Below the pieces are notes generated by a model. That model saw nothing but the letters and a program-made list of their open reading frames with translations, was not told the origin of the DNA and searched no databases. Shown here piece after piece: positions 26,701-53,965 of a DNA stretch of 64,000 bases. The translations under genes and the position numbers were made by a program. Within the stretch, counting starts at the first letter, position 1, and each line of letters starts with the position of its first letter. The DNA comes from Thermoplasmata archaeon (GTDB lineage Archaea; Thermoplasmatota; Thermoplasmata; Halarchaeoplasmatales; Halarchaeoplasmataceae), in the NCBI GenBank assembly GCA_003554965.1, contig PWHR01000046.1:56149-120148 (forward strand), given 5' to 3'.

Positions 26701-29700
26701 ATGGTCTGCTTCGTATAACCAGCGCCATTCTCCTTCTAATTCACCAACATGTTCAAAGTTAGCTGTTATCTCTTTATCCGAATCCATAGTGACAGTTATC
26801 TCTTCTTCAGTACCTTCATAATCACCAGTCCATTCGGTAAATTGCCATTCAGCGTCCTCAGGTATCGCTTCAAGATCCACATCAGTACCTTCAATGTAGT
26901 TGTCCTCTTCTGGATCGATCTCAACTGTTCCTTGGCCAGCAACATCGACATCTAAAGTATACATACCTGGGTTTATACTACCCATGTTGTAATCTTCGTA
27001 TGTTACCATCACGTACCAGTGATTATCGTTAGCCATCCTTTCTTCTTCTAGTTCCCAAGTCGTCTCTAACCTCTGATCTTCAATGATCTCGAATGAATCG
27101 ATCAGTTGATCCCAGTTTCCGTCGTAGAATTCGACTTCAATATATTGGTCGGTCGGATTGGTCACATCAACAGATAGATCTTGTTCAAGACCTGTTACCC
27201 ATTCGTCATGTTCTGGTTCTGGTTCTGTAGCTTCAGGCAGTGGTAATTCATAGACCGAATCTTCATTCATCTCTCTATTACCTACTCTGTCAACTGCTCT
27301 CACAACATAATGCCACTGTTCTCCGTCATCCGCCATTCCTTCATCTACATAACTGTACTCTTCTGATCCATCGGCCTCGACTTCGGCTATAGGTTCGTCC
27401 CATGGACCGTCCTGGTCTTCAGCTCTGTAGACTTCATAATATTCAGTGTCATCGTAACCTGCACCATCATCTGGTGACGCATCCCAAGTCAACTCGTTTC
27501 CTGTAACTGCCCATGGATCTGCATCCCAATCCAGTTCTAAGTTTTCAACTTGTTCTGGAGGATCTGCGTTTATGTCTGCAGTATCATGAACGTATCTTCC
27601 TTCTGGTTCGTAGGTATGGAATTCCCATGTATCAGACTCGATGGTTGTGACTCCGTCGTAAACTTCTACATGCCATTCGAAGGTTGAATTCGTTTCTAAT
27701 AAAACAAACTGTGTAGCTGCTTCTTCTCCAGACATTACTTCTTCAACAGTTTCATTACCGATCTCATAGCCGTCTTCATCGTACAGGTAGAATGTTACAT
27801 CCATGTGGTAATCATTTGGATCGTTGACTGTCACATTCATCAGTGGGGAATGAGTCACATCTTCTTCACCATCATACGGGCTTGGATCAGATACTTCAGG
27901 ATCTTCATGTTCATCCACGAAGACTCGTTCACTAACCTCTACGTTCTCTAGATTATCATCTTCAGGATGATCAGTTACCATCGTTAGAATGTAATCGCTC
28001 GGTTCTTCAGTTTCGGGAGTCCAGTCATCGAACTGGACCTGTTCGTCCTGACCAACACTCAAGTTTTCCACTTCTTGTTCGTCGTAGTATTCTTCTTCGG
28101 TATATTCCGTGGTTATAGTTACATCATCGATTCCCCAGTACTCATCTTCTTCGACTTCTTCTGAATAAATCTCCCAACCTATCCAGACTTCGTCTTCTTC
28201 AGAAGCCCATTGAGTTATATCGTATTCTTGTTCGCCGTGAGTTATGTTCCTGCCTATCCTTTTATAGCTATCGCCTTCATCGGTCGAGATCAAGAGTGAT
28301 CTTTCGTTTTCGTCGTAATTTCCTTCAAATTCAGAGAAGAATTCCAGGATGACTCTGTGTTCACCGTCACTACAATCAGCCATCTCAGACCACAGTATAT
28401 CGTGTTCGTGGTCGTCTATCGGAGTTATCTCGACCTTCTCTTCCTCTTCGTTATATTCCCAAGTATTATCGTTTCCATCCCTATCTTCGGCTTCCCAACC
28501 ATTATCAAATGGATCATCTGAGAAGTCCTCATCAAGCGGGATGTCGTCAATTATCTGTTCGATGCTCATTTCGACAGGTCCTTCATCAATATCCTGGTTA
28601 CCGACGTTGGTGACTGTTCCAGTAACGTTTCTCTCCTGGAAGTCAAATATCGGTTCTTCTGGTTCATCTATGGAAGTAGCTTCAAGATCATAGACGATCG
28701 GGATCACTTCAGTGAACTGCTCTAGGGTGGCTGAATCAGGATCAGTTTCATCTTCATGTTTAGCTGTAATATTGAATACATATTCACCTGCATCGGAAGG
28801 TGTCCAATCCTCGAACTCTGCATTGATCGTCTCGTCTTCATCTATAGTGACCTCTATCTCGTCAGAATAATCTTCTTCTCTTTCGCCCAATATAACGTCG
28901 TTGACGAACCAGTCATCCAGTTCGATCGTCGAGCCATGATATTCAAAGATCACCTGGGTTTCAGGACCTATATGGTCTGTTAGATTAACCTCATAATGAT
29001 CGGGCGCAATGCTTCCATCAACTGGATTCTCCCACGGGGTCACATCCTGCCATGACTCATCAGGATCGGACCTAGCCTGCACTATCGCATCGAATTGGTC
29101 TGTGCTATGATCGATGTAAGAGAAGAATTCCAAAGTTAACTCATCAGCTTCGGTTGTGTCCACAGCAGGACTCTGTAGATACGAGTAATCATCGTCTCCA
29201 ACATCAAACCAATAGAGATTAGCCTCTGGTGGATTACCTCCTGCTTCGTTGGAATCAGACTGAGTCCAGTCATCTGTTTCCCAACCTTCAGGTGGGAAAC
29301 TACCAGAGAAATCTTCAACGAATCCTTCGACATGTTCAGCTTTAGCTTCAACCGGTACATCTTCAACCATGAAGTCGCCATAGTTAGTTATCTCGGCTTC
29401 AACGTCCTGGGTTTCTTCCCAGACTTCTGTTTCTGGAGAGATTATCTCATCTACACCTAGATTCGCTTCGGGTGCTCTGACCAATATTGTTTCCCTCACG
29501 TAATCGAGTTCATCATCTAATTCTGTGCTGACGTTTATCTCGTACTCACCGACTTCTTCTGGATCCCACTCTTCAAATTCGACCTCTTTTGTCTCCTGAG
29601 CATCTATGTCTATTGTTGTAGCGTCGTCATATTCGTCATCTAAGCTTGTAACCATTACTTCGTATATCTCCCAGCTATCAGGTGTAAATGGATCTCCTCC

Positions 29701-32700
29701 GTGGTCGTCAGTTTCGTAGAGGAATCCTATCTGAACGTTCTCTTCACCGTCTGCATATTCTGATATGTCATAATAGATTTCGCCAAAATCATCATCCGTA
29801 AAGTTGTCGATCTCTTCCCATGTATCTCCACCATCTGTCGTAATCGAGATTTCCCCGTAGGGGTCACCTTCAATTCCATCGTCGAAATCGTGATCGACAA
29901 CGAGTTCAGTTCCTTCTGCCTCGGAAGCATCGATTTCTGGTGAGATCAACCATTCTTCTTGGACTTCTCCGTCATCATCCTCTACCCTTGCCATGCCTTC
30001 GTCGTCAAAGTAATGCTCCCAAGTTTCATCGCTCGTATCATCTATCTCCCATTCATCAGGGATTTCATCATGGAAGTCTTCATCTAGCCAGTAAAGTACT
30101 TGTTCCATCTCTACATCTACAGGAACTTCCTCTTCGTCGAATGTTCCGTAGTTTTCTATTGCGGTTGTAACGTCATGAACCTCATCGATCATCACAGTAT
30201 CGCTCGGGGAAATAATCTCTGAAACTTCTACACCGTGGACATCTTCGACTATTATATCCTGCGTGGTTCCGAAACCTACTATTTCATCATCTAAGTCTTC
30301 CGTCGTGGACTCCATCAAATATTCTCCTTTTTCATCTGGGTTCCAGTCTTCGAAAACCGCAGTAGTTTCTTCACCGGCATCTACGTCTACTTCGATTTCA
30401 TCTTGATATACATCTTGAACATATTCTACAGTGACCTCTTCGATACTCCAATCACAGAATGTTGAATGATCGTCGTCGTCGCTGCTGTGCCATACAAAAG
30501 CAACATGAACTTCTTCTTCACCATCTGCGTAGTCTGATATATCATACTCATACTCACCGTCAGGATCATCGTCTCCATCCCATTCTTCTATAAGATCCCA
30601 TTCATCGCCACCGTCCGAACTGACCTGGACTTCGGCAGTGTATTCTGGATCGCCAAAGCTGGGGCTTAGATCATGATCGAATATCAGCGTAGTATGGGAA
30701 CCATCGCTTACATCGATCTCCGGACTTATCAACCACTCTTCCTGGATTTCGTCACGGGTAACATCGATATCTGCCGAACTCGTTCCATGATGCCAAGTTT
30801 CATCGCTCGTATCATCTATCTCCCAATCGTCAGGTATCTCATCATCGAAATCCTCGTGTAGTGCGGTAACAAATTCATTTATCGTAGTCTCTACGGGTAC
30901 GTCTTCGTGATCAGCATCTCCTAAATTTTCAACTAGTGTTTCAATAGCATGATCTTCTTCAGTATTCACTCTTTCAGGAGGTTCTAGTATTTCGCTCACT
31001 CCGACTACATCGTCAGGCATCTCTGTAAAGTATTCTACTGAATTTGCCAATAGGGTCCAAGCTTCGTCCGTCCAATCTGGATCGTCTGGTGGGGCAAAGT
31101 AATCTATACCCACTGCTGGGAGTAGGATCTCATTTCCATCTTCATCGATCCCTACACCTTGTCCTTCGTAGGTAGTATCGTCATTATGGTATATGACTTC
31201 AGCTAGATCGTCTCCGCTGTAATCTTCGTAATAAGAACCGTAGATGTTACTTCCGACGTACATGTCAACAACATCGTCTTCTTCACCTACTCCATCAAAT
31301 ATTTCATGATCTTCTTGTATATCAATCTGGACAGGCGGCCTTGTATCGAGACCTTCGGCCCAATGTTCTTCAGGGTCATCGCGCACATTATGGAGTCTTG
31401 TTACACCATCTGGATAGCCTTCGTCAGTAGCACCCTCGTCAGAGTCTAGATATATCGCTGCTTGATCATCTTCTAGTTCATCCAAGAAGTCTTCAGCTAG
31501 TGAATCGCTGCCGAACCTCCACGGTACGAACGCATCGTAGTTCTCCATCTCATCTATTAGTTCATCGGCCTCTAACGTATCAACGACATATGGTCCTACC
31601 AAGCGTTGTTCTAATTGGTAAGCGATCTCGCCTTCAAAATAGTCTATTTCATCGATCACAGCTATTTTCGGAATCTCTTCATGCGGCGTCTCTGTAAGCA
31701 AATCCTCGTTTTCACTATCCATGCCTTCTTCAAGATCATCAGGATGTCCTGGATCCGCATCCCAGTACTCTGCTTCTATCTCGCCAGCATGGTCGACTTG
31801 AAGAGTTCCTTCTTCATCTTCTTCACTTAATTGCACTTGACCCTCGAAAAATCCTAAGTTCTCTTCATCTTCTTCCAATTCTAACGTTTTAACCTCGATC
31901 TCTTCTCCATCTTCATCGTAACTTGTCACATTAACCTCGTGAGTTCCCTCTCCTTCAAGTATTATGTCGTTCAAAGTAACATTGACAAGATCTTCACCGG
32001 CATACTCGTCCTTCTCGATCTCAATCTCACCTTCTTTGTCAGGTACTTCTATATCAACAATGTCGTCAGGAACGTTCGAGGCACTCAAAGCATAATCCTG
32101 GTTCGCCTCTCCATCGTTGTTAGCGTCTTCAGGAACATTAGTTCCGTGAACTCTAACGGTATAAGAACCGCTCTCTAGTTCGTCAGGATGAATGAAAACG
32201 TTCTGAACGTTGTTCACATCATCCCAACCGTCTCCATCATAATCGAAATCATCCATGACATCTGTATTCGGATAACTGTAACCGCTATCACTAGTACCGT
32301 CACCAGTTTCATCGAAAGCATTACCTCTGTATATGTCGCCACCAGGAGATTCCACTTCAAGATCCAAATTGTTCTTCAGTGTTGGTGTCCCACCTGCACT
32401 ATCGCCTTCTTGAGCGTTTTTATCTGTATAAGAAAGCGTTACCTTCAATGGTTCATCCTCATCTGCAGGATTAAACTCGTATTCTTCAACTTCTCCTGTT
32501 TCTATCAAAGTCTCCTGATCTTCCAGTTGGAATCCCATCGGTTCTTCTTTTGGATATTCTAATTTTGATAGATTCGGAACGCCCCAACCTTCATCTCTGT
32601 TTGGCACGTGCCCATCTGAAGGTATATTTCCTCCAGTATTACCTACTTCAGGGTCTAGTTCCTCTGCAGTATTAACGAGGATAGATCTGACCATGGCGGG

Positions 32701-34536
32701 ACTCGGTTTTTCATCGTATCTTTCTTCATACCATTCTACGATGATGGTAGCAGCTCCCGCTACCAAAGGATTACCGAAAGAAGTTCCACTAGAGGCTACA
32801 TAACCTCCACCTTCTAATGGTGTGTTTTGGGAGATAACATCTTCAGAAGGAGCTATAACATCAGGCTGTATCCTATTGTCTTCTGTCCATCCACGAGAAC
32901 TCATTCCATACATATTTTCTGGATTTTCACGATTGAGTCCAGGATTGTATGGTTCGTTACCACCTATAGCGATGGTGTTTTTAGCGTTCGCAGGACTACC
33001 TATCTCCTGATCGTAATCTCCTCTACCTCCGTCATTACCTGCAGAGGTAGTTATCACCATCGGAACGTTTTCGTCCGTATCTCTATCAGCGTCTCTTACC
33101 GCTTGATCGAATATCTCATCAGAATCACTGTATTCTCCCATAGTTCCAGCGCCCCACGAATTCGTATGTATGTAAGCGTCAGAACGCTGAGCGGGTTCCT
33201 CTACGATCGGATAATATTCTGCAGGGATAAAGCCGCCCCCGTCGTCGAAGATCTTGGTACCGAAGAGTTCAGATTCATAGCCTAGTCCTTGTCCCATATA
33301 ATACTCCATATCACCATCTTCTGTTTCATCCCAGGTCTCACCTGTTCCTCTGTAAGTATCACCAGACACAAGTCCTGTACATTGTGTTCCATGACCCATT
33401 CCATCGGCCCAATCATCTTCTTGTTCAAATCCGTAACCATCGACAACTCTACCTGTAAAATCTTCAACACCTGCATCACCGACTGATCCATCTCCTATTC
33501 CTGAGTCAGCCACAGCGACAGTTACTCCTTCTCCACTGTAACCTAACTGATTGATGTAAGCTCCGTAATCACCGTGTTTTCTGTACGGCTCTTGCGGATC
33601 TCCTTCTCTCGGTGGAGGTGTCAGATCGTCTCGACGATCATATTCATCGTCCATGAACCATTGTCCACCACCGATCAGCTGGATATCCATCTCCGCATGA
33701 AGTTCTGGCTCCACATAAGGTGCGATGTAATAAACATCGTTCTCCAAGGCTAAATCTTCAACATCGTCCATAGATTCTATGTCGACAGTCACTCTAGAGC
33801 CATCTTCTCTAAGATCTTCTACACCCAAAACATCGGCTTCGGCTTCGATCATATTCAACGTAGAAGCATCAAATCCTGGCCTCAACCTTATGTTCAAAGG
33901 CATCTCCTTGTCAAGAGCCTCGTCTATCTCGCTGTGCATCTTGAATTCTGGTTGGTAGATACCGACCCAATCAACAAAATCAAAGTCCTCGACTTCTTCA
34001 GCCTGTTCGGGCGTCATTATAACTTCGTACGCATAGTTCGGCTGGTAATTGAACACATTTACTCCGATATCTTCTATTTGCTCTCGCCATTCAGGATTTA
34101 TCGGACCCATCATATCTACGATATAAAGTCCCTCAGTTTCTGAATCGTATCCCTCTATTTTCAACTCAGAGTTCAATTCTGGAAAACCTTCATTGGTATC
34201 AAACGTGTGACCTTTCACACTAATCTCATTTCTGTTCTCTAGAATCTGGGCATCTAACTCAGATTCTAGTTCCCGAGCTGTTCTTTCATCCGTCCTCATC
34301 AATACGTTTCGTCCGTAATGATCTAAAATTTCGCCTTCAAGGCTCAAATCTTCAACCATTTCAGGACTATCCGTATCGATTAGGACCACCGTTTCTACAT
34401 CTTCGATAGTTTCAAACAAACCTGTTCCATCTTGCTCAGCATCTCCAAAAACCATCATCCCAGGGACGACGGTTCCTACCACTAGTACAAAGGCTATCAC
34501 TAAAACAGATATTCCTCTTCTTGCTTTTCCTTCCAT
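23779..34536 (-). CDS. Giant secreted/membrane-anchored multidomain protein with subtilisin-like S8 peptidase domain (SPEARE-like surface protein)
   Basis: About 3585 aa. Start taken at MEGKARRG (RBS GAGGT 7 nt upstream; homologous to the start of the 43060..50931 gene); the ORF-track ATG is at 34560. Signal peptide present. S8 triad reads VADSGIGDG / HGTQCTG / GTSFGNPLVAGAA. P-domain-like region is followed by many acidic beta-sandwich (MAM/choice-of-anchor-J-like, CARDB-like), fn3 and PKD repeats. Ends in a heptad coiled coil, TM anchor and acidic tail ending FEE. Confidence 0.85.
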   Translation of the reverse strand: MEGKARRGISVLVIAFVLVVGTVVPGMMVFGDAEQDGTGLFETIEDVETVVLIDTDSPEMVEDLSLEGEILDHYGRNVLMRTDERTARELESELDAQILENRNEISVKGHTFDTNEGFPELNSELKIEGYDSETEGLYIVDMMGPINPEWREQIEDIGVNVFNYQPNYAYEVIMTPEQAEEVEDFDFVDWVGIYQPEFKMHSEIDEALDKEMPLNIRLRPGFDASTLNMIEAEADVLGVEDLREDGSRVTVDIESMDDVEDLALENDVYYIAPYVEPELHAEMDIQLIGGGQWFMDDEYDRRDDLTPPPREGDPQEPYRKHGDYGAYINQLGYSGEGVTVAVADSGIGDGSVGDAGVEDFTGRVVDGYGFEQEDDWADGMGHGTQCTGLVSGDTYRGTGETWDETEDGDMEYYMGQGLGYESELFGTKIFDDGGGFIPAEYYPIVEEPAQRSDAYIHTNSWGAGTMGEYSDSDEIFDQAVRDADRDTDENVPMVITTSAGNDGGRGDYDQEIGSPANAKNTIAIGGNEPYNPGLNRENPENMYGMSSRGWTEDNRIQPDVIAPSEDVISQNTPLEGGGYVASSGTSFGNPLVAGAATIIVEWYEERYDEKPSPAMVRSILVNTAEELDPEVGNTGGNIPSDGHVPNRDEGWGVPNLSKLEYPKEEPMGFQLEDQETLIETGEVEEYEFNPADEDEPLKVTLSYTDKNAQEGDSAGGTPTLKNNLDLEVESPGGDIYRGNAFDETGDGTSDSGYSYPNTDVMDDFDYDGDGWDDVNNVQNVFIHPDELESGSYTVRVHGTNVPEDANNDGEANQDYALSASNVPDDIVDIEVPDKEGEIEIEKDEYAGEDLVNVTLNDIILEGEGTHEVNVTSYDEDGEEIEVKTLELEEDEENLGFFEGQVQLSEEDEEGTLQVDHAGEIEAEYWDADPGHPDDLEEGMDSENEDLLTETPHEEIPKIAVIDEIDYFEGEIAYQLEQRLVGPYVVDTLEADELIDEMENYDAFVPWRFGSDSLAEDFLDELEDDQAAIYLDSDEGATDEGYPDGVTRLHNVRDDPEEHWAEGLDTRPPVQIDIQEDHEIFDGVGEEDDVVDMYVGSNIYGSYYEDYSGDDLAEVIYHNDDTTYEGQGVGIDEDGNEILLPAVGIDYFAPPDDPDWTDEAWTLLANSVEYFTEMPDDVVGVSEILEPPERVNTEEDHAIETLVENLGDADHEDVPVETTINEFVTALHEDFDDEIPDDWEIDDTSDETWHHGTSSADIDVTRDEIQEEWLISPEIDVSDGSHTTLIFDHDLSPSFGDPEYTAEVQVSSDGGDEWDLIEEWDGDDDPDGEYEYDISDYADGEEEVHVAFVWHSSDDDDHSTFCDWSIEEVTVEYVQDVYQDEIEVDVDAGEETTAVFEDWNPDEKGEYLMESTTEDLDDEIVGFGTTQDIIVEDVHGVEVSEIISPSDTVMIDEVHDVTTAIENYGTFDEEEVPVDVEMEQVLYWLDEDFHDEIPDEWEIDDTSDETWEHYFDDEGMARVEDDDGEVQEEWLISPEIDASEAEGTELVVDHDFDDGIEGDPYGEISITTDGGDTWEEIDNFTDDDFGEIYYDISEYADGEENVQIGFLYETDDHGGDPFTPDSWEIYEVMVTSLDDEYDDATTIDIDAQETKEVEFEEWDPEEVGEYEINVSTELDDELDYVRETILVRAPEANLGVDEIISPETEVWEETQDVEAEITNYGDFMVEDVPVEAKAEHVEGFVEDFSGSFPPEGWETDDWTQSDSNEAGGNPPEANLYWFDVGDDDYSYLQSPAVDTTEADELTLEFFSYIDHSTDQFDAIVQARSDPDESWQDVTPWENPVDGSIAPDHYEVNLTDHIGPETQVIFEYHGSTIELDDWFVNDVILGEREEDYSDEIEVTIDEDETINAEFEDWTPSDAGEYVFNITAKHEDETDPDSATLEQFTEVIPIVYDLEATSIDEPEEPIFDFQERNVTGTVTNVGNQDIDEGPVEMSIEQIIDDIPLDEDFSDDPFDNGWEAEDRDGNDNTWEYNEEEEKVEITPIDDHEHDILWSEMADCSDGEHRVILEFFSEFEGNYDENERSLLISTDEGDSYKRIGRNITHGEQEYDITQWASEEDEVWIGWEIYSEEVEEDEYWGIDDVTITTEYTEEEYYDEQEVENLSVGQDEQVQFDDWTPETEEPSDYILTMVTDHPEDDNLENVEVSERVFVDEHEDPEVSDPSPYDGEEDVTHSPLMNVTVNDPNDYHMDVTFYLYDEDGYEIGNETVEEVMSGEEAATQFVLLETNSTFEWHVEVYDGVTTIESDTWEFHTYEPEGRYVHDTADINADPPEQVENLELDWDADPWAVTGNELTWDASPDDGAGYDDTEYYEVYRAEDQDGPWDEPIAEVEADGSEEYSYVDEGMADDGEQWHYVVRAVDRVGNREMNEDSVYELPLPEATEPEPEHDEWVTGLEQDLSVDVTNPTDQYIEVEFYDGNWDQLIDSFEIIEDQRLETTWELEEERMANDNHWYVMVTYEDYNMGSINPGMYTLDVDVAGQGTVEIDPEEDNYIEGTDVDLEAIPEDAEWQFTEWTGDYEGTEEEITVTMDSDKEITANFEHVGELEGEWRWLYEADHRFEADNAGGVGPDPIDWYGAMRLDLSDDIGGYISEVAYYDYDDDTGEFGDWAYGYIAEDDGGAPGEWLTETEEYNPEGAGWVELELDEDVMIEEDEYWIVMHIDDPGDGHFPFGIDDTSYPDEGQWITWEDPHDPANWEESGLGAWGLEAYVEVPVTGDEIDEEPTDEELMGDEVDVAVVDADNWQEYEIEYKLEDYLPDDEYNVETLWNEDNEHWDDWLIDEIDNYDTFVIQRYEYTEADSEAAAEDFLDNLQDGQGVVYLDTHVGASQEGYSDGVTQLHNVRDDPGYHDSEGTGTNPPQYLEILEDHPIFEDIGEEGDEVLMFDGTTNWGSWFDEYSGEILAEKDYGGGYGGPAVGVCEDRNEVLLPAKGIGFFGEADDPGWSEEANQMFANAVEYTSDPAAVPEGYGWSFHLEDDVEPHAEFHIEEEPDYYQGDTITLNATESYNPPSDNAGIENYTWEIVDPYDETYYFYEPVIEKPLEYALYYDITLTVTDAYGNSAEAWDEIYAIDTEDPVADAGTSDQTRVGVEYELDGSGSTDNVGVEDWSWSIEGISGEAEGYYDTTEGEIVDYVFPYQGTYDVYLEVSDEEGNTDTDKISVIVNPPVEAFDITSPEEDYVIIEQDTVTVEWEGHEYLGDIDYEIRINYGDWDDIGTDTDYTFIGLEDGTHVVQVRATDGAGNRYTETRVFEVSTIEEKLEIFSPEDGVESLTYDEEFTIHGETDPNLDVYVNDASVSVDDNGEFVYETDLIEGQNVFTVQAMDDEEIVAEATVYALYLPELEELNDELDDLRDDLNDVETGLQTQIDDLFDELDDIETELQNQIDDLDDELDDVESDLQAQIDDIEGDINHIEGNIDDIEGNIDDIEGNIDDIEGDIDGIEGNIEDIEAEIEDIEGDIEDIEAEIEDIEGNIADIEDDISDLEDDVDMARNLGIVGMVLAILAVIIAVFAVMMKKGGNEPVKEETRETESFEE
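23950..24330 (-). repeat. Coding tandem repeats (21-nt heptad units DIEGNID..., then about 54-nt units) forming the coiled-coil stalk of giant protein 1
   Basis: Repeated gtttccttcaatgtcatctat-type 21-mers and longer LQxQIDDLxDELDD units are visible in the DNA. Confidence 0.8.
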
Positions 34537-34742
34537 ACTTAATACCTCTACCACTAGCACTGTCTACATTCATCTTTAGAGGATTAATAAATCTCACTAC
34601 GACATGTCGACGATTCGAGGGGAAAAAGGATATAAGAGCTTTTGCTATAGAGATATATCACATGTATTTACACCGAATTATAGTAATTTATTTTCATAAC
34701 GGGAGTAACTTCTTTATAACCCTTAAACCTACTTGTATCTAA

Positions 34743-37700
34743 ATGAAGTTAAATACAGGTAGGTCTAGAATTTTGGTCCATCTTTGGGCACAAAAGAAAT
34801 CTATTGGGTATGATGAACATAAGGAGGTTCCTTTTAGTTTATGCCAGAAAGGTATTTCTGAGTCTGTAGATCTCTCAAGAAATCGAACTAGTGAGATCAT
34901 AAGGGATCTGGTCGAAAAGGGTTTAGTTGAAGAGTCAGTACGACGGGTTGTAGGATTGAAAAGGCGTAGAAAGGTCTATTCTTTAACGGAAAAGGGGATG
35001 AAAAGAGCTAAAGAGATACGAGATGAATTAAAAGATAGAGAAGTGAAAGTCAAGACGGATTCCTCGACATATGAGGTTAAATTAGAAGAGATCGATTCTT
35101 ATCTAGATTCTAGAGAACCTTTTTTGGTAGCGTTAAATAATCTAGACGAGAAAGACACGCTCGACCTTACTGAGCCTGAAAAAAAGAAGGAAGATGTTTT
35201 TGTGGGAAGAGAAGAAGAGATAGCAAGCCTTTCAAGTGGATTAGAAAAAGCAAAAAACGGCGAGGCTTCAGTTTATATGATAAGGGGGAAAGCCGGTATA
35301 GGTAAGACTAGACTAGTAAATGAATTCAAAAACCATGCCCTTTCTAACGGATTTGATTTCATAGCTGGAAAAGGCTATTACTACAGTTCAGAACCTTACC
35401 TTCCTTTCAAAGAAGCATTTAAGAAATTTCAGGACGAGGAAAACGTCGACTACCCTCTTGAATTTCCAGAAGGTTCGAGTAAAACAAATAAGATTCCATC
35501 TGAAAAAGAATTACAAGATAAAAACTACAGCGATGTTATATTCTCCGAGACAATAAAAAATATAAAAAAAATAGTAAAGAAAAGACCATTATTGATATTC
35601 ATTGATGATCTTCAATGGGTCGATAAAGCATCTCTTATTCTATTCCATTATATAGCTGATAAATTGAACGATCAAAAGATGATGTTGATCGGGTCGTATC
35701 GTCCTGAGGATGTTGTAGAAAATGATTTTCTCAGAGAGATACTACAGAGAATGAACAGGGAAGACCTTTACGATGAGATTTCCCTTGAACCGCTCACATG
35801 GGAAGATACTCGAGAAATAATAAAAAGTTTGATCGGGAAGTACGTGATACCAGAAGATTTTGCGAAAATAATACACGAAACTTCGGAAGGCAATCCTCTA
35901 TTTTCCAAAGAACTCGTAAAACAGATGCTCGATGACGGTACTTTAGATCCAAAAAACAAAGTCTTCCCCTCGAAAAAGAATGGTTTTGAATTACCGAAAG
36001 TCATTGACGAGATAATAGAAAGAAGGATAAAGAGATTGAATAAGGAGAACCTAAAAGTACTGCAGATCGGGAGTATTATAGGTGAGGATATTCCCTTTGC
36101 TTTACTCCACAAAGTCAGTGATCTTGAGTCCTTTGAACTATTAGAATACACTGATATACTGACGGGGTCTGGAATTTGGGATTATGATGCCGAGGATGAT
36201 CTATTTCATTTCGCTCACGGTCTTATTTACCTTTCCATATATCAATCCATTCCCAAGCATATCAAAAAAATTCTTCACGGAGAAGTGGCTGAAGCCATGG
36301 AAAAGATCTTCGAGGATGATCTAAAAAGTCACTATCATGAGATCGGTAAGCATTACAAGGTCTCAAGTAATTATTCTAAGGCTATGCAATATTTTGAAAA
36401 GGCAGGTGAGAATGCTAGAAATTTGTACGCCTATCAGGACGCCATAGAGATTTTCGAAAAGGCCTTTGATTTAGCTGAAAAAACGAATTCGCATGAAAAA
36501 ATTGGGAAGATATCATTAAAGCTAGGGGATCTTTATAGCATTATTGGAAAGTATGAAAAGAGTTTAGATTATTATGAAATGGTTCCCTTGGATGAGTTAG
36601 AAACCGATCAGGAGGCTCGTAAATTTTACAGGAAGAAAGCTAAATTATTCGATAGGATGGGTCGGTTGAAGGAAGCGATAAAATTAACAGATAAAGGCCT
36701 TGAAATAGGTAACGAAGAAAATATGGAGACCGCTAAACTTTTAAATCGAAAAGGTTGGGCTCAAATGAGAATCGGTTACCATTCTTCAGCAAAAGAAAAC
36801 TTTTTGAAGGCTTTGAAAATCAGCAAAAACCAAGGAGAGGAAAATGAATTTGGAGACATGTATCATGCCCTCGGTTCGATCTATATCCATGATGCAGAAT
36901 ATGATGAAGCTTTGAAATATTTGAAAAAGGGTTTAGAGGTAAGAGATAAGAATGATGATAAAGAGGGTAAAGCCTCCTCACTCGCTAACATAGGGAACGT
37001 ATACTTAAAAAAGGGTGAGATCTATAAAGCCTTGGATAAATTCAATCAGAGCCTAGAAATTTTAAGAGAAATTGGGAAAAAAGACCAACTATTCAAAATC
37101 CTTACTAATATTGGAAACGCCAGGCTTAAAAAAGGAGAACTGGAAAAAGCATATGAATGCTATAAAGAATCTCAGGAGATAATTGAAGAGCTTGATGATG
37201 TCAGAGGCTTAAACATTTCACTAACCAATTTAGGAAATTATCATATATTAAAAGGAGATTTTGATAAAGCTCTTGAATATCATAAAAAGAGTCTTGAGAT
37301 GAGTCAAGAGAAAGACCTTAAAAATGGGATCGCATTAGGGCATAATAATCTGGGTATAATTTATACTCATAAAGAAGATTATGATAATGCAAAAAGTAAT
37401 TTCTTCAAAAGTATAGAAATTTGCGAGGAAACAGAAAACTATCATCTCCTTGTCCATCCACTAGTTGGATTAGCTCATATATTCAATCATGAGAAAAAAT
37501 TCGAAAAAGCGTTGGAGAAAGCAGAAAGAGCTCTTGAAATTTCAAAAAACATCGGAGCCAAGATAGAAGAAGGTATAAGTAATAAAGCTCTGGGGATCGT
37601 TCACCGGGATATTGGAAACTTTGATGAGGCAAAAATTAGGTTTGAGAAAGGAAAGGAGATGCTTTCCGAATCGGGAGAAAGTAAAGAAATGGGTAAGCTA

Positions 37701-37841
37701 CTTTTCGAAGAAGCACTATTAGCAAAGAAAATAGACGATGGAAAAAAACACGATGAACTTTTGAAGAAAGCTAAATCCTTGTTTGAAGAGCGGGATATGA
37801 AATATTGGATAGAGAAATGTGAAAAAGAAATTGAAAGTTAA
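34743..37841 (+). CDS. STAND-type regulator: N-terminal winged HTH + AAA(AAA_16-like) ATPase + C-terminal TPR array
   Basis: 1032 aa. wHTH in the first ~100 aa. FVGREEEIASL...MIRGKAGIGKTRL (Walker A) and LLIFIDDLQWVD (Walker B). At least 10 TPR-like repeats in the C-terminal 450 aa. Confidence 0.75.
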   Translation: MKLNTGRSRILVHLWAQKKSIGYDEHKEVPFSLCQKGISESVDLSRNRTSEIIRDLVEKGLVEESVRRVVGLKRRRKVYSLTEKGMKRAKEIRDELKDREVKVKTDSSTYEVKLEEIDSYLDSREPFLVALNNLDEKDTLDLTEPEKKKEDVFVGREEEIASLSSGLEKAKNGEASVYMIRGKAGIGKTRLVNEFKNHALSNGFDFIAGKGYYYSSEPYLPFKEAFKKFQDEENVDYPLEFPEGSSKTNKIPSEKELQDKNYSDVIFSETIKNIKKIVKKRPLLIFIDDLQWVDKASLILFHYIADKLNDQKMMLIGSYRPEDVVENDFLREILQRMNREDLYDEISLEPLTWEDTREIIKSLIGKYVIPEDFAKIIHETSEGNPLFSKELVKQMLDDGTLDPKNKVFPSKKNGFELPKVIDEIIERRIKRLNKENLKVLQIGSIIGEDIPFALLHKVSDLESFELLEYTDILTGSGIWDYDAEDDLFHFAHGLIYLSIYQSIPKHIKKILHGEVAEAMEKIFEDDLKSHYHEIGKHYKVSSNYSKAMQYFEKAGENARNLYAYQDAIEIFEKAFDLAEKTNSHEKIGKISLKLGDLYSIIGKYEKSLDYYEMVPLDELETDQEARKFYRKKAKLFDRMGRLKEAIKLTDKGLEIGNEENMETAKLLNRKGWAQMRIGYHSSAKENFLKALKISKNQGEENEFGDMYHALGSIYIHDAEYDEALKYLKKGLEVRDKNDDKEGKASSLANIGNVYLKKGEIYKALDKFNQSLEILREIGKKDQLFKILTNIGNARLKKGELEKAYECYKESQEIIEELDDVRGLNISLTNLGNYHILKGDFDKALEYHKKSLEMSQEKDLKNGIALGHNNLGIIYTHKEDYDNAKSNFFKSIEICEETENYHLLVHPLVGLAHIFNHEKKFEKALEKAERALEISKNIGAKIEEGISNKALGIVHRDIGNFDEAKIRFEKGKEMLSESGESKEMGKLLFEEALLAKKIDDGKKHDELLKKAKSLFEERDMKYWIEKCEKEIES

Positions 37842-37947: not shown

Positions 37948-40900
37948 TTACTCTTCGAAAGTAACAGTTTCGTCTTTCTCTTCGAACATCTCTTCTTCCT
38001 CTGGTTCACTTTTATCCTGTTTTTTCATTACCACCGTAAAGATCGCTATTATCACTGCAAGTATCGCCAAGATCATTCCGACTATTCCTAGGTTTCTTGC
38101 CATATCTACATCGTCTTCAAGGTCTGAAATGTCGTCTTCGATATCTGCTATGTCGTCCTCTAGTCCAGCTATATCGTTTTCGATATCTGCTATGTCATCC
38201 TCTAGTCCAGCTATGTCATCCTCTAGTCCAGCTATGTCATCCTCTAGTCCAGCTATGTCATCCTCTAGTCCAGCTATGTCATCCTCTAGTCCAGCTATGT
38301 CGTCTTTTATGTCCTCTATATCTCCTTCGAGAGCATCTAGCTCGTCCCACAAGTCATCTACCTGGCCTTGTAGATCGTCTTCGAGAGCATCTAGCTCGTC
38401 CCACAAGTCATCTACCTGGCCTTGTAGATCGTCTTCGAGAGCATCTAGCTCGTCCCACAAGTCATCTATCTGGCCTTGTAGATCGTCTTCGAGAGCATCT
38501 AGCTCGTTCCACAAGTCATCTATCTGTGTATATAAATCCTCTATATCGCCTCTCAGATCATCTATCTCTGGTATGTAGGATGCAGTAAGCTCTTTGACTA
38601 CCTCATTGCCGGCCTCGTCTTCAGCGACTATCTCGATGTAGTTATCGCCTTCTTCTAGTGTCACTGTTTCCTCGAAGCCGAACTCTTCGTCCAGTTCAAC
38701 TGGCTCATCATTTATCCAAACTGTTACTCCCTCTTCTGTCTCTCCGTATATAATAGCTTCATCAGTCTCGACATCGTTTTGTAGATCTATGTTAAGCATC
38801 GGAACTGTGTTGTCGACTTCGAATGTGACTTCGAATTCATTGGTATTACCTTCCTCATCCTCTACTTCCATGTGATAAGTGTGACTTTGTTCAGCCAAGA
38901 CCACTGGTAGTTCAAATTCGACTTCCGGTTCTCCTATGTCTATATATCCGTCTTCCCACCAACCGTCTAAACTCAGATGGGCCGAATATAGGTTCTCAAC
39001 AGGATGTTCTTCTGCAATCTCTCCAGATATGACCAGTGAATCTCCTTGTACCACGTCGCCTTCTTCTGGATCTAAGATCATTTCGACTGGAACTTCTTGA
39101 GGCTCAAAAGTCAGTACAACTCCTGTTTCTTCATGATCTTCCCACTGTGTGACAGCTTTGAACTCATAAGTTGCACCTGTTTCTAAACCTTCTAGAGTCT
39201 CCTCAAATTCACCAACATCTTCCATCACCTGTTCTTCAGTTTCGTTCCATTCATCACCCGGGAACCTGAATCTAAAGAATACATCTACTTCGGTTACATT
39301 CTCTGGCATGCTCAAAAGTTCACCATTTAGTGAGGCTTTTTCCTCGCTAATTATAGTGGAGGGCTCTGTAGATACAATAGAAGTGCTTAATTCAGCAGAG
39401 AACTCTTGATAAGGTTCATGCCCTGATATCTGATGACTCTGGAGAGCGATCATGTAAGTTCCAGATTCCAGCATATCTCTCTCCAAGGCAACGTATCCCT
39501 CACTTCCTAGATCCGTGTAGTCAATAGTTTCTAGGGTATTAACGCCATATCGATCTATCATGTCCCAATCATTGGTCACGATGCTAAACGGATCTTCCTC
39601 ATAAGGTTCTCCAAGTTCTAGCAGATCATGTTCCGCTCCACCGAGTAGGAAAGCTGTCATATCACTCATCGGATCGTCCCATTCGAGCTCTAATTTTACA
39701 TCGCTATCTACGATGTCTTCCGTCAAGTGGAACGTGTAGAATCTCCAGTCTCCATTCAAGCCGCCTTCCCAGCTTCCGTACAATCTGTCGTTCCTGTATA
39801 TACCGAAGTCCTCTTCAGCATCGCCGTCTCCGGCTCCGAAGTGCATCGGTTCTGCCAGATCTGTGTGTTCGCCAACGGTTATCGTGATGGGTATCTGCAT
39901 CGTTCTATCATTCGTAGTGTCTTCTAACATCATCTTTCCGCTGTAGATTCCTTTAGGGGCCTCCTCGGGTACTTCGGCGGTGATATTATACTCTAATGAA
40001 TCTTCAACTGGTATGCTTCCTTCTGGTTCATCGATCTCTATCCAATCCCATTCTACCTGGTTGTACATCTCTATATTCAAAGTGAAATTGAATGACTCAG
40101 GTATGGGATTTTCTTCAGTAGCTAATAGATTATCGATCTGTAATATAATACCATCTTCAGCTCTCTCTAACGCATCATGTATGGTGAAATAATCACTCGT
40201 AAGCTCTTCTCCCACAGCCGCTAAAGTAGCGAATGTGTAGCCGATCCTGTTTCTCTCTTCCCAACCATCGTAAGAACTGTTATCGTTAACGTCTTCCCAG
40301 TTATAGATTTGTGCGATAGCATAATCCCATTGATCTTGCTCTTCAAGTGGTGTGTGTGTGCCGAACCTCAAAAGATCCGCTTCTTCTGGATCGTCAAGTT
40401 CTACCAACAAGTCGCTGATATTCCAGTTCTCATTATCTTCGTCGTATTCCAGCTCATAAACACCTGTTTCGTTGATCATGACCTGTGGTTCTATTGGTCC
40501 GGTACCACTGTTTAGCTCGACGGATGCGTTATCTTCTTGTTCCATTCTGTAAGGGGTCATCTCGTAATCTATATCTTCATCGTGCCAATTGTGCAAGGTC
40601 ATCTCGTCCGTCACTTCTTCACCGGGCTCCATCATGTTCACGTGATGCTCGACATGTTCACCCATCTCTGGGTTCGTACCGGGTCTCCACTGGAACTCTT
40701 CAGAATAGAGACCGCCCTGAGCTATCTGTACAGAATCATATGCATTGGCGTCGCCAGGACCCTGCAGATTAGGAGTGTTGTTTATGTCGTCGGCTCCCTG
40801 CATAACTATGTTCTTCAATGTTTCAGCTGTAGGAGCTTCACCATGTGCGTCCTCATAAGCCTCGTAAACTAAAGCGGCGATACCGGCAGCGTTCGGCGCC

Positions 40901-42807
40901 GAAAGGCTAGTTCCGGACCAAAGTGTCCAGGAATTGTTGCCTTGGAAATCTCCGATATTTTCAAGCTGTTGATTGAGTGGATCTCCACCGTATCCGAACT
41001 GCCCATTGGTCATTATGTCCGGACCGTGTGAACCTTTAGAATGCGGACCTGTACTTGTCATGCCAGTAACATCACCATACCATGGATTTGGACCGCCATC
41101 GTCCATTCTCCACGGATCGACTCTATACATCTGATTTCCGGTCGCGCCGACAGAAAGTACGCCTTGAGCACCTGAAGGCGCGCTAACAGTTCCGAATCCA
41201 CTACCTGAATTACCCTGAGAGTTTATGAACAGTGTGTTTTCAGTGTATTGAGTACCGACATAGTCGAACAACCTTTCGTAGAAGTTGAAGCCACCGTGAT
41301 TCTCATCGATGGTCCGTCCGAAGCTGCTGGAAGCGATATCAGCGGAATCGCAGGTTATCTCTACATCACCTGTGTAGCCTTCAGCAGTGAAGAACAGAGA
41401 CGAATATGTTGTAGGTACTGCGTACTGATCTATACTCAATGGATTTTCGGGTGGCAGATAATCAAAGAACCTGCCCATCGGGATTATGGTCGCGTTCGGA
41501 GCCATACCTCTCGGAAGGCCTTCTCCTGGTTCACCTGGTGGATATGGACTTTCTCCAGGCACTAAAATATCTTCTTCAGGAACGCCCGTAACGGCTTGAC
41601 CAGCTACGGCTGATGCGGTCCAAGTTCCGTGAGCACCCATAGAGCCGAACTCGTTGAAGTCGCCCATGAGAGCCACCATGTCGCCGTCTTCGGGTGTGGT
41701 GTAGAAATCTTCACCTACTACAGCTTCCCATGCATCTTCTACATCAGGATCCATTTCTCCAATAGTTCCTGGCGGATATCCCATGTAGAGATTGATGATC
41801 TTGTTCATCGTATCTCTGAAGTGATCCATGTAGGGTATAGCTCTCTCGCCGTCAGACACGAAGTAAACCATACCACCTGAGATGTCAGCGATGTCGTCTC
41901 CAGTCACATCTTTGGTGATCATTTCGGATTCCGGATCTTCTCCGTCTATCCATGCTCCAGTTTCCTCAACGAATTCTTTATCATTCTCAAGGTCCACATA
42001 TACATTCGTCCAATCGCCATCATCGTTCTGTGTCAAAAGGACTGCTGGTCTCTCTTCGTACCATATGTGAAGTTTCTCGTCGGGATGATCACCGAATCTT
42101 ACTTCTTCCTCGGCTTCAGCGACCTCAGTGACGTTGTAAGTTTCGTCTCCGTAATCGGCCCATATATATCCCTCATACTCATAGGTCTCCGTCTCGTAGC
42201 TAGTATCAACATACCAGCTGTTATCTTCAAAATCAGGCATGACTTCGTAATCTTGACTTATCTCCCCATCGAATGCATAGTCAGCCATAGAGACCGGATC
42301 AAAGGCTATCGGATGACCGTCATAGGCTTCATACTCATCAGGCATCGTATCCTCGTCATACTCGAATACAGCGTGGGTCCCGATCAGATCAGGGTGCGCC
42401 ATGTCGAATCCGGTATCCATGAGAGATACAGTTACGTTTTCTCCCGTTATGCCCATGTCATGGACCGGCTCAACTTGATGCTGGTCTATGGTGTGGGGAT
42501 CGGTTAACAAGTCCTCCGATGAGGATAATCCTTCTCTAGATACTTCAGAGCCCGATAATATCTCTGTCAGTTCAGGGTCTAGAACGTCCGGTCTATCCAC
42601 TGGGTCAGTAGGATCTCTCTCCTCAATATTCTCTAGAACTTCTTCCAAAAGCGCTGGATCACTTTCCGTTTCCTCTTCTGAGAGTGCGGTTTCTGTATCC
42701 TGCGCGTGAACTCCAGTTACTCCCGCCGTTAGAACGGAAAAAATCAACAGTGCCGCTATAACAGTAGAAATCACTATACTTCTTTTTCTATTCTTTTTAA
42801 CATTCAT
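37948..42807 (-). CDS. Giant secreted/membrane-anchored protein with subtilisin-like S8 peptidase domain (paralog family, SPEARE-like)
   Basis: 1619 aa. Strong RBS GGAGGAG. Signal peptide present. S8 triad reads SLMDTGFD / HGTWTASAVAG / GTSLSAPNAAGIAAL with a large insert. Acidic beta-sandwich domains follow. C-terminal coiled coil built from perfect repeats, then MARNLGIVG + TM + acidic tail ending FEE. Confidence 0.85.
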   Translation of the reverse strand: MNVKKNRKRSIVISTVIAALLIFSVLTAGVTGVHAQDTETALSEEETESDPALLEEVLENIEERDPTDPVDRPDVLDPELTEILSGSEVSREGLSSSEDLLTDPHTIDQHQVEPVHDMGITGENVTVSLMDTGFDMAHPDLIGTHAVFEYDEDTMPDEYEAYDGHPIAFDPVSMADYAFDGEISQDYEVMPDFEDNSWYVDTSYETETYEYEGYIWADYGDETYNVTEVAEAEEEVRFGDHPDEKLHIWYEERPAVLLTQNDDGDWTNVYVDLENDKEFVEETGAWIDGEDPESEMITKDVTGDDIADISGGMVYFVSDGERAIPYMDHFRDTMNKIINLYMGYPPGTIGEMDPDVEDAWEAVVGEDFYTTPEDGDMVALMGDFNEFGSMGAHGTWTASAVAGQAVTGVPEEDILVPGESPYPPGEPGEGLPRGMAPNATIIPMGRFFDYLPPENPLSIDQYAVPTTYSSLFFTAEGYTGDVEITCDSADIASSSFGRTIDENHGGFNFYERLFDYVGTQYTENTLFINSQGNSGSGFGTVSAPSGAQGVLSVGATGNQMYRVDPWRMDDGGPNPWYGDVTGMTSTGPHSKGSHGPDIMTNGQFGYGGDPLNQQLENIGDFQGNNSWTLWSGTSLSAPNAAGIAALVYEAYEDAHGEAPTAETLKNIVMQGADDINNTPNLQGPGDANAYDSVQIAQGGLYSEEFQWRPGTNPEMGEHVEHHVNMMEPGEEVTDEMTLHNWHDEDIDYEMTPYRMEQEDNASVELNSGTGPIEPQVMINETGVYELEYDEDNENWNISDLLVELDDPEEADLLRFGTHTPLEEQDQWDYAIAQIYNWEDVNDNSSYDGWEERNRIGYTFATLAAVGEELTSDYFTIHDALERAEDGIILQIDNLLATEENPIPESFNFTLNIEMYNQVEWDWIEIDEPEGSIPVEDSLEYNITAEVPEEAPKGIYSGKMMLEDTTNDRTMQIPITITVGEHTDLAEPMHFGAGDGDAEEDFGIYRNDRLYGSWEGGLNGDWRFYTFHLTEDIVDSDVKLELEWDDPMSDMTAFLLGGAEHDLLELGEPYEEDPFSIVTNDWDMIDRYGVNTLETIDYTDLGSEGYVALERDMLESGTYMIALQSHQISGHEPYQEFSAELSTSIVSTEPSTIISEEKASLNGELLSMPENVTEVDVFFRFRFPGDEWNETEEQVMEDVGEFEETLEGLETGATYEFKAVTQWEDHEETGVVLTFEPQEVPVEMILDPEEGDVVQGDSLVISGEIAEEHPVENLYSAHLSLDGWWEDGYIDIGEPEVEFELPVVLAEQSHTYHMEVEDEEGNTNEFEVTFEVDNTVPMLNIDLQNDVETDEAIIYGETEEGVTVWINDEPVELDEEFGFEETVTLEEGDNYIEIVAEDEAGNEVVKELTASYIPEIDDLRGDIEDLYTQIDDLWNELDALEDDLQGQIDDLWDELDALEDDLQGQVDDLWDELDALEDDLQGQVDDLWDELDALEGDIEDIKDDIAGLEDDIAGLEDDIAGLEDDIAGLEDDIAGLEDDIADIENDIAGLEDDIADIEDDISDLEDDVDMARNLGIVGMILAILAVIIAIFTVVMKKQDKSEPEEEEMFEEKDETVTFEE
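38144..38301 (-). repeat. Perfect 21-nt tandem repeat (about 7.5 copies) encoding DDIAGLE heptads
   Basis: gtcatcctctagtccagctat is repeated head-to-tail. Confidence 0.9.
38326..38541 (-). repeat. Perfect 54-nt tandem repeat (4 copies) encoding DDLWDELDALEDDLQGQV
   Basis: tcgagagcatctagctcgtcccacaagtcatctacctggccttgtagatcgtct is repeated 4 times, with only synonymous or conservative changes. Confidence 0.9.
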
Positions 42808-50931: not shown

Positions 50932-51089
50932 ATTTTACCTCGGGAAAGAGCAATTTGAATCTGTCTAATATACTTTATGTTCGAAAGCCTTATATTTACC
51001 ATATTTCGAATATATACTACTTGGTGAAAACAACATTCACCCAGGATAACAGCACTTACGTCCCGATCGACTCGCTGGATTGTCTTCAT
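50928..51089 (-). CDS. Candidate small upstream ORF (52 aa) whose stop overlaps the giant gene 3 start codon (ATGA)
   Basis: Hand-translated as MKTIQRVDRDVSAVILGECCFHQVVYIRNMVNIRLSNIKYIRQIQIALSRGKI*. A GAGGA lies 4 nt upstream of its ATG. No homology is recognised; speculative. Confidence 0.2.
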   Translation of the reverse strand: MKTIQRVDRDVSAVILGECCFHQVVYIRNMVNIRLSNIKYIRQIQIALSRGKI

Positions 51090-52562: not shown

Positions 52563-52610
52563 GATTTATACAATCCTTTAGTTGAGTTTCTAGCACGTTC
52601 ATATACACAT

Positions 52611-53963: not shown

Positions 53964-53965
53964 CC

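Follow-up and report, generated by a model that had tools for sequence, protein, structure and literature searches.

Why does a single gene for a STAND NTPase lie among three giant genes of opposite orientation in a Thermoplasmata archaeon, and what does its product control? We addressed this question in a 64,000-nucleotide stretch of contig PWHR01000046.1 (the window hereafter; positions count from its first nucleotide). The STAND gene (34743-37841, plus strand) is located between the minus-strand giant genes G1, G2 and G3. Our listing of the open reading frames (ORFs) identifies it as the sole credible plus-strand gene between them, in agreement with a preliminary description of the sequence that had called it the only one in this island. 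Our analysis suggests that its product is probably a signal-dependent transcription factor, similar to MalT and PH0952, that controls the divergent giant gene G1. It probably also regulates its own gene.

Domain architecture of the STAND protein

The STAND gene is an intact ORF from ATG to stop and encodes 1032 amino acids. Pfam places an AAA_16 domain at residues 153-314 (72.6 bits, cutoff 32.6) and a tetratricopeptide repeat (TPR) array at residues ~545-1025, with matches to TPR_12 (190.8 bits), TPR_1, TPR_2 and TPR_MalT (70.2 bits, cutoff 45). The Walker A motif GKAGIGKT is found at residues 182-189 (nt 35286-35309). The Walker B motif LLIFIDDLQWVD is found at residues 283-294 (nt 35589-35624) and includes LLIFIDD at residues 283-289. 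Gly182, Gly185, Gly187 and Lys188 are invariant across 50 homologues, as expected for the P-loop nucleotide-binding domain (NBD) of STAND NTPases.

An AlphaFold model built on 50 homologues has a mean predicted local distance difference test score (pLDDT) of 90. In the model, the N-terminal winged helix-turn-helix (wHTH) domain (residues 6-97, pLDDT ~90) consists of three helices and a beta-hairpin wing. It is followed by a beta/alpha module (residues 100-141), a disordered linker and the NBD, helical domain (HD) and winged-helix domain (WHD) at residues 157-502. The NBD, HD and WHD form the core (NOD) that is characteristic of STAND NTPases, and an arm and a repeat sensor come after it, also as in STAND NTPases. 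Residues 505-1031 are modelled as 27 helices that form ~13 TPR-like hairpins. The invariant positions in the TPRs are the structural Gly, Ala and Asn of TPR_12-type repeats. The preliminary description had proposed a 1032-residue protein composed of wHTH, AAA_16/STAND and TPR parts, with both Walker motifs and at least 10 TPRs. The ORF, Pfam, the orthologues and the model all agree with this proposal.

The wHTH domain of the window protein alone scores below the Pfam threshold (PadR, 23-25 bits, cutoff 27). PadR or HTH_24 matches were found in 12 of 15 orthologous N-termini (best E 2.7e-7), and all the matching families are winged-helix DNA binders. These matches indicate that the predicted winged helix is real at the superfamily level. 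In the model, residues 46-58 (RNRTSEIIRDLVE) form the recognition helix and the wing bears GLKRRRKVYSLT. The beta/alpha module between the wHTH and the NOD (KVKT...IDSYL...P.LVALNNLD) is kept in all orthologues; a role in dimerisation or docking is possible.

In a Foldseek search of the PDB with the model, the best match is PH0952 from Pyrococcus horikoshii (6mfv; E 6e-16, 810 columns, 16% identity). PH0952 is also archaeal and has the same order of domains: an N-terminal winged helix, which is ArsR-like in PH0952, the NOD, the arm and the TPR sensor. It was described by its authors as a predicted transcription factor, and their paper gives no target genes, operator or inducer (PMC6468293). 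Unlike PH0952, the window protein has a NOD of the AAA_16 type with a DDLQW Walker B signature, and the extra conserved beta/alpha module after the wHTH. A full-length phmmer search against the PDB returned only TPR proteins, together with a weak match to 6mfv that is confined to the TPRs (E 7.8e-4).

Conserved pairing with giant protease genes

G1, G2 and G3 each encode a signal peptide and a Peptidase_S8 domain near the N-terminus (E 1e-29 to 1e-37; 5e-30 for G1). The S8 domains are followed by Ig, PKD and Big domains, a Glucodextran_B-like domain and a coiled-coil stalk, with a PQQ-type propeller in G3. All three C-termini consist of a heptad coiled-coil stalk, the sequence DMARNLGIVG, a transmembrane (TM) helix, KK and an acidic tail. 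The layout of G1, for instance, is signal peptide, S8 domain, Ig/PKD domains, coiled-coil stalk, MARNLGIVG-TM anchor and a tail ending ...TESFEE. The S8 domains, signal peptides and anchors together identify the island, as judged from the encoded domains, as a set of giant membrane-anchored extracellular proteases. G1 and G3 are 50% identical over the N-terminal 830 residues and 45% identical over the C-terminal 300 residues. The giants contain 25-30% Asp and Glu and 3% Lys and Arg, compared with a cytoplasmic background of 18% and 14%. The island is flanked by housekeeping genes (helicase, Rnf subunits, topoisomerase and enolase).

We surveyed the context of related STAND genes by scanning metagenomes, calling ORFs ourselves and comparing them with the window proteins by BLAST. 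The preliminary description had suggested looking for co-occurrence of the STAND gene with giant genes, and it was found: a STAND gene divergent from an S8 giant similar to G1 or G3 is present at 11 of 13 loci with a readable upstream region, the window counted. The paired loci are the window, L099, and L010, L094, L096, L098, L100, L101, L102, L174 and L176, the last nine with a G1 orthologue. At each of them the giant is located immediately upstream of the STAND gene. At L175 the upstream region is cut by the contig end and is unreadable for pairing.

The STAND proteins across the paired loci are 31-57% identical. L174 (57%), the closest relative, and L176 (51%) are two of the four closest relatives, and both are paired with a giant. 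In a rough neighbour-joining tree, paired loci are found in the clade of the window and also on deeper branches (L099 and L100/L101), and loci with STAND arrays form one sister subclade. Since pairing occurs in the window clade as well as in deep branches, it looks ancestral and kept down to 31-36% identity.

The first three contexts had suggested a lack of co-occurrence with giants. The wider survey led us to reject this suggestion; the early result arose because the array-type subclade had been sampled. At L001, L003, L005 and L008 the orthologue is located in arrays of two to four AAA_16-TPR paralogues, none of them among S8 giants. The layout of the array subclade is a wHTH-STAND gene of ~1005 codons followed by an ~860-codon STAND gene without a wHTH, with an AAA_16-only gene for 526 amino acids and a 68-amino acid ORF on the opposite strand. 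At L008 (STAND protein 46% identical) a DEAD/MZB helicase gene (1-1779) lies directly upstream of the STAND gene. Its product is 57% identical to that of the window helicase gene (21378-23693), which is parted from the STAND gene by the 10.8-kb G1. Insertion of G1 into an ancestral helicase-STAND adjacency was considered and set aside, with giant pairing being the commoner and deeper state.

A search with residues 1-580, the non-TPR part, returned full-length orthologues at 42-53% identity. The next-closest relatives are Thermoplasmata proteins of ~810 amino acids without a wHTH, and the more remote ones are bacterial regulators in which AAA_16 is joined to a GerE/LuxR, SARP/BTAD or cyclase domain. 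When the N-terminal 150 residues were searched exhaustively, 133 representatives of 50% identity clusters matched at E<=1e-10, mostly of 1000-1100 amino acids. By this count the predicted wHTH-STAND proteins are a sizeable unannotated family. Among GTDB-representative genomes, matches spanning the wHTH were found in two Thermoplasmata loci only, and the nearest genome-resolved relatives of the STAND protein are from Thermoplasmata metagenome-assembled genomes. One of the two closest hits in our first word-indexed search (P0001, 53% identity) is labelled 'Promethearchaeota archaeon' by NCBI. This is probably a binning or labelling inconsistency, since the genome-resolved relatives, L014 and L015 included, are all from Thermoplasmata.

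A candidate operator in the divergent intergenic region

The intergenic region between G1 and the STAND gene contains a perfect palindrome, which we regard as a candidate operator. Its centre is 68 bp from the ATG of G1 and 138 bp from that of the STAND gene, upstream of both. The window contains only two palindromes of at least 10 bp with an ACATGT core; the other one is inside a coding sequence, and 34600-34609 is the sole exact match. The ACATGT hexamer itself occurs 16 times in the window, with just two of these occurrences intergenic, both within 34537-34742. TATA-like boxes are found on both sides of the palindrome (Table 1), and a further TTTATAA is located at 34713-34719, 23 bp before the STAND ATG.

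The spacers of the paired loci have diverged past alignment except between close relatives. All 11 keep an inverted repeat 61-93 bp upstream of the giant ATG (Table 1), and the contig-cut locus L175 also bears GCACA/TGTGC (the slash marks the centre). In an alignment anchored at the centre, the giant side has an A/T-rich TATA-like box 13-23 bp from it, and this offset is shared by L010, L102, L096 and L094. On the STAND side, a box GGATATAA(T/G) is located 22-31 bp from the centre, at the same offset in L010, L096 and L102, with AGATATAAG in L101. Palindromes of at least 8 bp with an ACATGT core are found 15 times in 325 kb of loci, and 5 of these are inside the STAND-giant spacers, which add up to 1.5 kb (binomial P=6e-9). 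Every such palindrome of at least 12 bp is in one of these spacers.

Substitutions in the repeats are symmetric. The window has CGACA/TGTCG where L174 has TACA/TGTA, and L010 and L102 have GAACA/TGTTC where L096 has GAAAA/TTTTC. There is also co-variation between the core of the repeat and the residue that opens the recognition helix (Arg46 in LSRNRTS): this residue is Arg at 8 of 8 loci with an ACATGT core and Ile or Leu at 3 of 3 loci with an A/T-only core. Ile or Leu and the A/T-only core occur together on three separate branches (Fisher P=0.006, without correction for phylogeny). That both halves change together and that the core changes with the helix residue point to selection that acts on dyad symmetry and not on plain sequence. 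The obvious interpretation is that Arg46 would read the G of ACATGT. If so, an R46I or R46L substitution would shift the site preference toward the CGAAATTTCG type. The computational case for the operator is strong, and binding of the STAND protein to it is predicted.

The co-variation also bears on whether the protein acts on DNA at all. TPR proteins are often secretion chaperones and the STAND gene is tightly linked to giant secreted proteins, so one could imagine a TPR/ATPase protein that helps the giants to be secreted or anchored, as a chaperone or assembly factor, and whose winged helix contacts protein. A protein-binding winged helix would not explain why a recognition-helix residue co-varies with the bases of a palindrome, and the nearest counterparts of the NOD and sensor are the predicted transcription factor PH0952 and MalT. 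We consider such a chaperone very improbable.

STAND NTPases with TPR sensors are also common in anti-phage systems, and the window protein has weak, P-loop-only matches to BrxD and SngB. A defence-type, Avs-like STAND protein that senses a viral protein through its TPRs had already been judged less likely in the preliminary description, and our data make it extremely unlikely. A PADLOC search gave no defence family match beyond generic TPR and P-loop segments. In place of a nuclease, protease or SIR2 effector, the N-terminus has a predicted DNA-binding wHTH. The gene conserved beside the STAND gene, with which it shares the candidate operator, codes for an extracellular protease of the housekeeping type, and there is no defence island.

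Another explanation accepts the STAND protein as a transcription factor and places its targets elsewhere. The adjacency to giants would then be inherited synteny, and the palindrome would serve autoregulation or another factor. One subclade and several paralogues are indeed located in STAND arrays or beside a helicase gene and not beside giants, G2 and G3 have no operator site, and the paired loci all come from similar soda-lake sediment communities, so that they share substantial ancestry. Pairing, on the other hand, survives to 31-36% protein identity and spans deep branches. The distance from the repeat to the giant ATG (61-93 bp) is tighter than that to the STAND ATG (48-270 bp), despite spacers that can no longer be aligned. 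We therefore regard targets elsewhere as unlikely and favor control of G1.

A number of observations weigh against the proposed control of G1 or narrow its scope. The proposal is computational and concerns uncultured organisms, and the TATA boxes and transcription starts were assigned by visual inspection. A profile of the N-terminal part matched no solved STAND core in the PDB, MalT and AfsR included. In a generic test for any palindrome of at least 10 bp, such palindromes were found at 6 of 9 loci, which 0.7% of shuffles reach (P=0.007), a modest result in AT-rich spacers; the case for the operator is borne by the specific tests of core, position and co-variation. The loci are related, and the enrichment and Fisher P-values overstate their independence. 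L177, 48% identical in the N-terminal 150 residues, has 821 bp upstream without an ORF or operator-like palindrome; this region may hold the remains of a giant gene or may reflect another arrangement. The sister subclade (L001, L005, L008, L011 and L012) and several distant wHTH-STAND genes are not beside giants, and the array subclade has a conserved upstream element of its own, an inverted repeat GCGGGT...ACCCGC around the TATA-like box of the first gene. In the window and L174 the operator is 138 bp from the STAND ATG, compared with 48-59 bp elsewhere, so autoregulation is less certain in the window. Finally, searches upstream of G2 and G3 in the window for an exact copy of the operator, for copies with at most 2 mismatches and for ACATGT-core palindromes gave no match. 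Direct control is thus predicted for G1 and the STAND gene and not for the whole island. The preliminary description had suggested a transcriptional regulator of the island; the conserved pair and the co-varying palindrome are consistent with this suggestion for G1, and it does not extend to G2 and G3.

Proposed mechanism and comparison with known systems

We propose that in the resting state the STAND protein would be a closed, ADP-bound monomer in which the TPR sensor contacts the NOD and thereby keeps the protein shut. Binding of a cytoplasmic ligand to the TPR sensor would open the NOD, allowing exchange of ADP for ATP and multimerisation. Paired wHTH domains would then bind the palindrome CGACATGTCG between the two divergent TATA-like boxes. 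Binding would most likely activate transcription of G1 and would probably modulate the regulator's own promoter. In the general STAND switch, an inducer likewise converts a closed ADP-bound monomer to an open ATP-bound multimer (PMC6468293).

The direction of regulation can be considered in light of other regulators. MalT and AfsR, STAND transcription factors that have been characterised, both act as activators. For the archaeal regulator TrmBL1, sites upstream of the TFB recognition element (BRE) and TATA box activate in vitro, and sites downstream repress (PMC4706686). Together with these precedents, the position of the candidate operator just upstream of the G1-side TATA-like box points to activation of G1. 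Our best guess for the ligand, made with low confidence, is short peptides or amino acids from extracellular proteolysis, which would create a MalT-like loop of product induction. This guess is based on product induction of MalT and on the RRNPP-like fold of the sensor.

MalT and other LAL regulators have in common with the window protein the AAA_16 NOD and the MalT-like TPR sensor. Their LuxR/GerE HTH is C-terminal, whereas the window protein gives no match to GerE/LuxR, ends in TPR helices and has its wHTH at the N-terminus. The NCBIfam models for MalT and AfsR score 23.6 bits (cutoff 537) and 83.8 bits (cutoff 1430), respectively. Given the lack of a C-terminal LuxR HTH and the low NCBIfam score, the window protein is not a strict member of the MalT/LAL group. 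In its archaeal host the partner would be TATA-binding protein (TBP), transcription factor B (TFB) and RNA polymerase (RNAP), and not sigma-70 RNAP as for MalT/LAL regulators. The predicted site is a single palindrome, whereas MalT uses arrays of asymmetric MalT boxes. AfsR/SARP regulators carry an N-terminal SARP domain where the window protein has a wHTH. The peptide-sensing RRNPP regulators (NprR, PlcR, Rap and AimR), which are known from Firmicutes and phages of Firmicutes, carry an XRE-type HTH and lack an NTPase module. Their HTH and TPRs are fused directly, whereas a 350-residue NOD parts the wHTH from the TPRs in the window protein, and the TPR fold alone is similar.

The predicted promoter layout resembles that of sptA, the gene for an extracellular S8 protease (halolysin) in Natrinema. 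Expression of sptA is described as depending on semi-palindromic elements upstream of the TATA box, and the abstract of that study mentions cis-regulatory elements only and no trans-acting factor (PMC6085418). Halolysins are small secreted enzymes, whereas the window giants have 1600-3600 amino acids; the likeness is one of layout.

The architecture of the STAND protein is already known in archaea from PH0952, and its logic from MalT/LAL and AfsR in bacteria. What our analysis adds is the conserved pairing with genes for giant surface subtilases, along with the candidate operator and its predicted contact residue. For the wHTH-STAND family, a target, an operator and a specific contact, between Arg46 and the C/G of ACATGT, can thereby be predicted. 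This bears on how costly extracellular proteases of 1600-3600 amino acids are controlled in uncultured, protein-degrading sediment archaea. A regulator of the expected kind in the expected place is unsurprising to a specialist.

C-termini of the giant proteases

The acidic tails of all three window giants end in FEE, as stated in the preliminary description (...TESFEE in G1, ...TVTFEE in G2 and ...TDFFEE in G3). It had also proposed that the TPRs read these tails. In this proposal, binding of a tail would switch the NTPase and the wHTH would give the output, providing feedback from the load of surface proteins.

Three types of C-terminus are found among the STAND-paired giants: the ARNLGIVG-type TM anchor, a PGF-CTERM-like signal, and neither. 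ARNLGIVG anchors are present in G1-G3, in L098 with a non-acidic tail (...SEKSDQTKE), and in the upstream and downstream giants of L101 (...DDEEEL and ...YFEEEQEQ). PGF-CTERM-like signals are present on the giants of L094, L096, L097, L100 and L011, and the giant of L099 has no anchor. Archaeosortase cleaves off PGF-CTERM, leaving no cytoplasmic tail. Homologous giants appear to swap anchors after the same stalk, either to ARNLGIVG-TM, with F/Y-EE tail motifs in 4 of 6, or to a PGF-CTERM-like signal. FEE C-termini are confined to the window organism among the fetched loci, on which the tail distribution rests, and a database search with a 74-residue stalk-anchor-tail segment of G1 gave no match.

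Tail sensing has some attractive features. Three giants end in FEE after a conserved MARNLGIVG-TM anchor, and F/Y-EE(E) motifs occur in 4 of 6 ARNLGIVG-type tails across lineages. The STAND protein has TPRs of the LGN/KLC/TPR_12 type, whose ligands are extended peptides, often acidic ones. The carboxylate-clamp TPRs of Hop and CHIP, which read EEVD, have the TPR fold in common with the STAND protein, and the tails of the giants are likewise acidic with a free carboxylate after EE. There is also a precedent in the inhibition of MalT by the transporter ATPase MalK (PMC6468293).

A carboxylate clamp would call for a conserved partner with an acidic C-terminal motif, and the giants at six related loci differ in this respect. 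Pairing persists with PGF-CTERM giants (L094, L096, L097 and L100), with a non-acidic tail (L098) and without an anchor (L099). FEE in the three window giants follows from the paralogy of G1-G3. The giants are acidic throughout, so their acidic tails are not a special signal. On the loci compared, tail sensing fails as a conserved function of the wHTH-STAND family, and we consider it very unlikely for the window protein. A narrower version is distinctly improbable as well. In lineages with ARNLGIVG anchors and aromatic-acidic tails, the TPR sensor might monitor the tails or unexported precursors of the giants, in analogy to MalK and MalT, and so couple protease load to G1 transcription; in a more conventional variant of this idea, the TPRs would sense peptides released by the proteases. 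If the variant were true, the window protein would be the first STAND transcription factor from an archaeon for which inducer, operator and target are defined.

Other features of the locus

Coordinates of the STAND gene, its control region and related features are collected in Table 1.

Table 1. Features of the window and of related loci. Positions in other loci are those of the locus named; a slash marks the centre of an inverted repeat.
Feature	Position	Strand	Remarks
STAND regulator gene	34743..37841	+	wHTH, small beta/alpha module, NOD (NBD-HD-WHD), arm, TPR sensor
Winged helix-turn-helix effector domain, residues 6-97	34758..35033	+	model; PadR/HTH_24 in 12/15 orthologues
Small beta/alpha module, residues 100-141	35040..35165	+	model strands and helices; orthologue conservation
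NOD (NBD, helical domain, winged-helix domain), residues 153-502	35199..36248	+	
Arm and TPR sensor, residues 505-1031	36255..37835	+	27 helices, ~13 hairpins
G1, giant membrane-anchored S8 subtilase, ~3585 aa from MEGKARR start	23779..34536 (ORF to 34560)	-	predicted direct target
G2, 1619-aa S8 subtilase, same stalk, anchor and tail	37948..42807	-	convergent with STAND gene
G3, 2623-aa S8 subtilase, PQQ-type beta-propeller, G1 paralogue	43060..50931	-	
Divergent intergenic control region, G1 ATG (34536, -) to STAND gene	34537..34742	.	core homologous to L174 intergenic region
Candidate operator, perfect palindrome CGACA/TGTCG (CGACATGTCG)	34600..34609	.	predicted
Second, imperfect ACATGT site (TCACATGTAT)	34660..34665	.	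58 bp right of palindrome
Putative G1 promoter TATA-like box (ATTAATAAAT)	34583..34592	-	13-22 bp from palindrome centre
Putative STAND-side TATA-like box (GGATATAAG)	34628..34636	+	24-32 bp from palindrome centre
Inverted repeat, window	34600-34609		CGACA/TGTCG
Inverted repeat, L174			TACA/TGTA
Inverted repeat, L176			TCCCACA/TGTGGGA
Inverted repeat, L010			GAACA/TGTTC
Inverted repeat, L102			TAGAACA/TGTTCTA
Inverted repeat, L094			TTCACA/TGTGAA
Inverted repeat, L101			TACACA/TGTGTA
Inverted repeat, L096			TAGAAAA/TTTTCTA
Inverted repeat, L100			CAAA/TTTG
Inverted repeat, L098			CCATAAttTTATGG
Inverted repeat, L099			CTTGTAGaaCTACAAG
ARNLGIVG anchor regions, window	23779-23919, 37948-38100, 43060-43210		
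ARNLGIVG anchor region, L098	646-800		
ARNLGIVG anchor regions, L101	6189-6350, 13394-13560		
Array-type locus, L001	6445-17638		
Array-type locus, L005	1513-9377		
Array-type locus, L008	2108-9877		
Array-type locus, L011	986-6701		

The archaeal origin of the window is supported by an archaeal signal recognition particle (SRP) RNA at 15779-16091 (Rfam). No tRNAs were found in the window, and Rfam gave the SRP RNA only. The contig is recorded in a soda-lake sediment metagenome (JGI 3300000557, SL_8KL_010_SED).

Two other inverted repeats were seen near giant genes. Upstream of G3 (50980-51010), TTCGAAA-N17-TTTCGAA surrounds a TATA-like box (CCTTATATTTACC). This repeat does not resemble the ACATGT operator and may be where a different regulator of G3 acts. 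In L010 (1900-1935) and L096 (9865-9900), the predicted 5' leader of the giant contains the inverted repeat CCTCCGTTAGAGGAGG, which overlaps a Shine-Dalgarno-like GGAGG and may form a hairpin for translational control.

The stalks of G1-G3 are encoded by tandem repeats of 21, 42, 54 and 63 nt with 74-98% matches (23931-24324, 38129-38526 and 43292-43548), which probably favor variation in length and errors in assembly. Directly past G3, at 51237-55042, two tandem RnfC-like genes (441 and 450 codons) are found with an RnfD/NqrB-like gene; the duplication of RnfC is unusual. A very acidic ORF of 1467 amino acids (9435-13838; 26% Asp and Glu) has a sub-threshold C-terminal Prok-RING_1 finger as its sole Pfam match. 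At 57483-58721, an ORF of 412 amino acids has a composition like that of the extracellular giants (33% Asp and Glu, 3% Lys and Arg) and probably encodes another secreted or surface protein.

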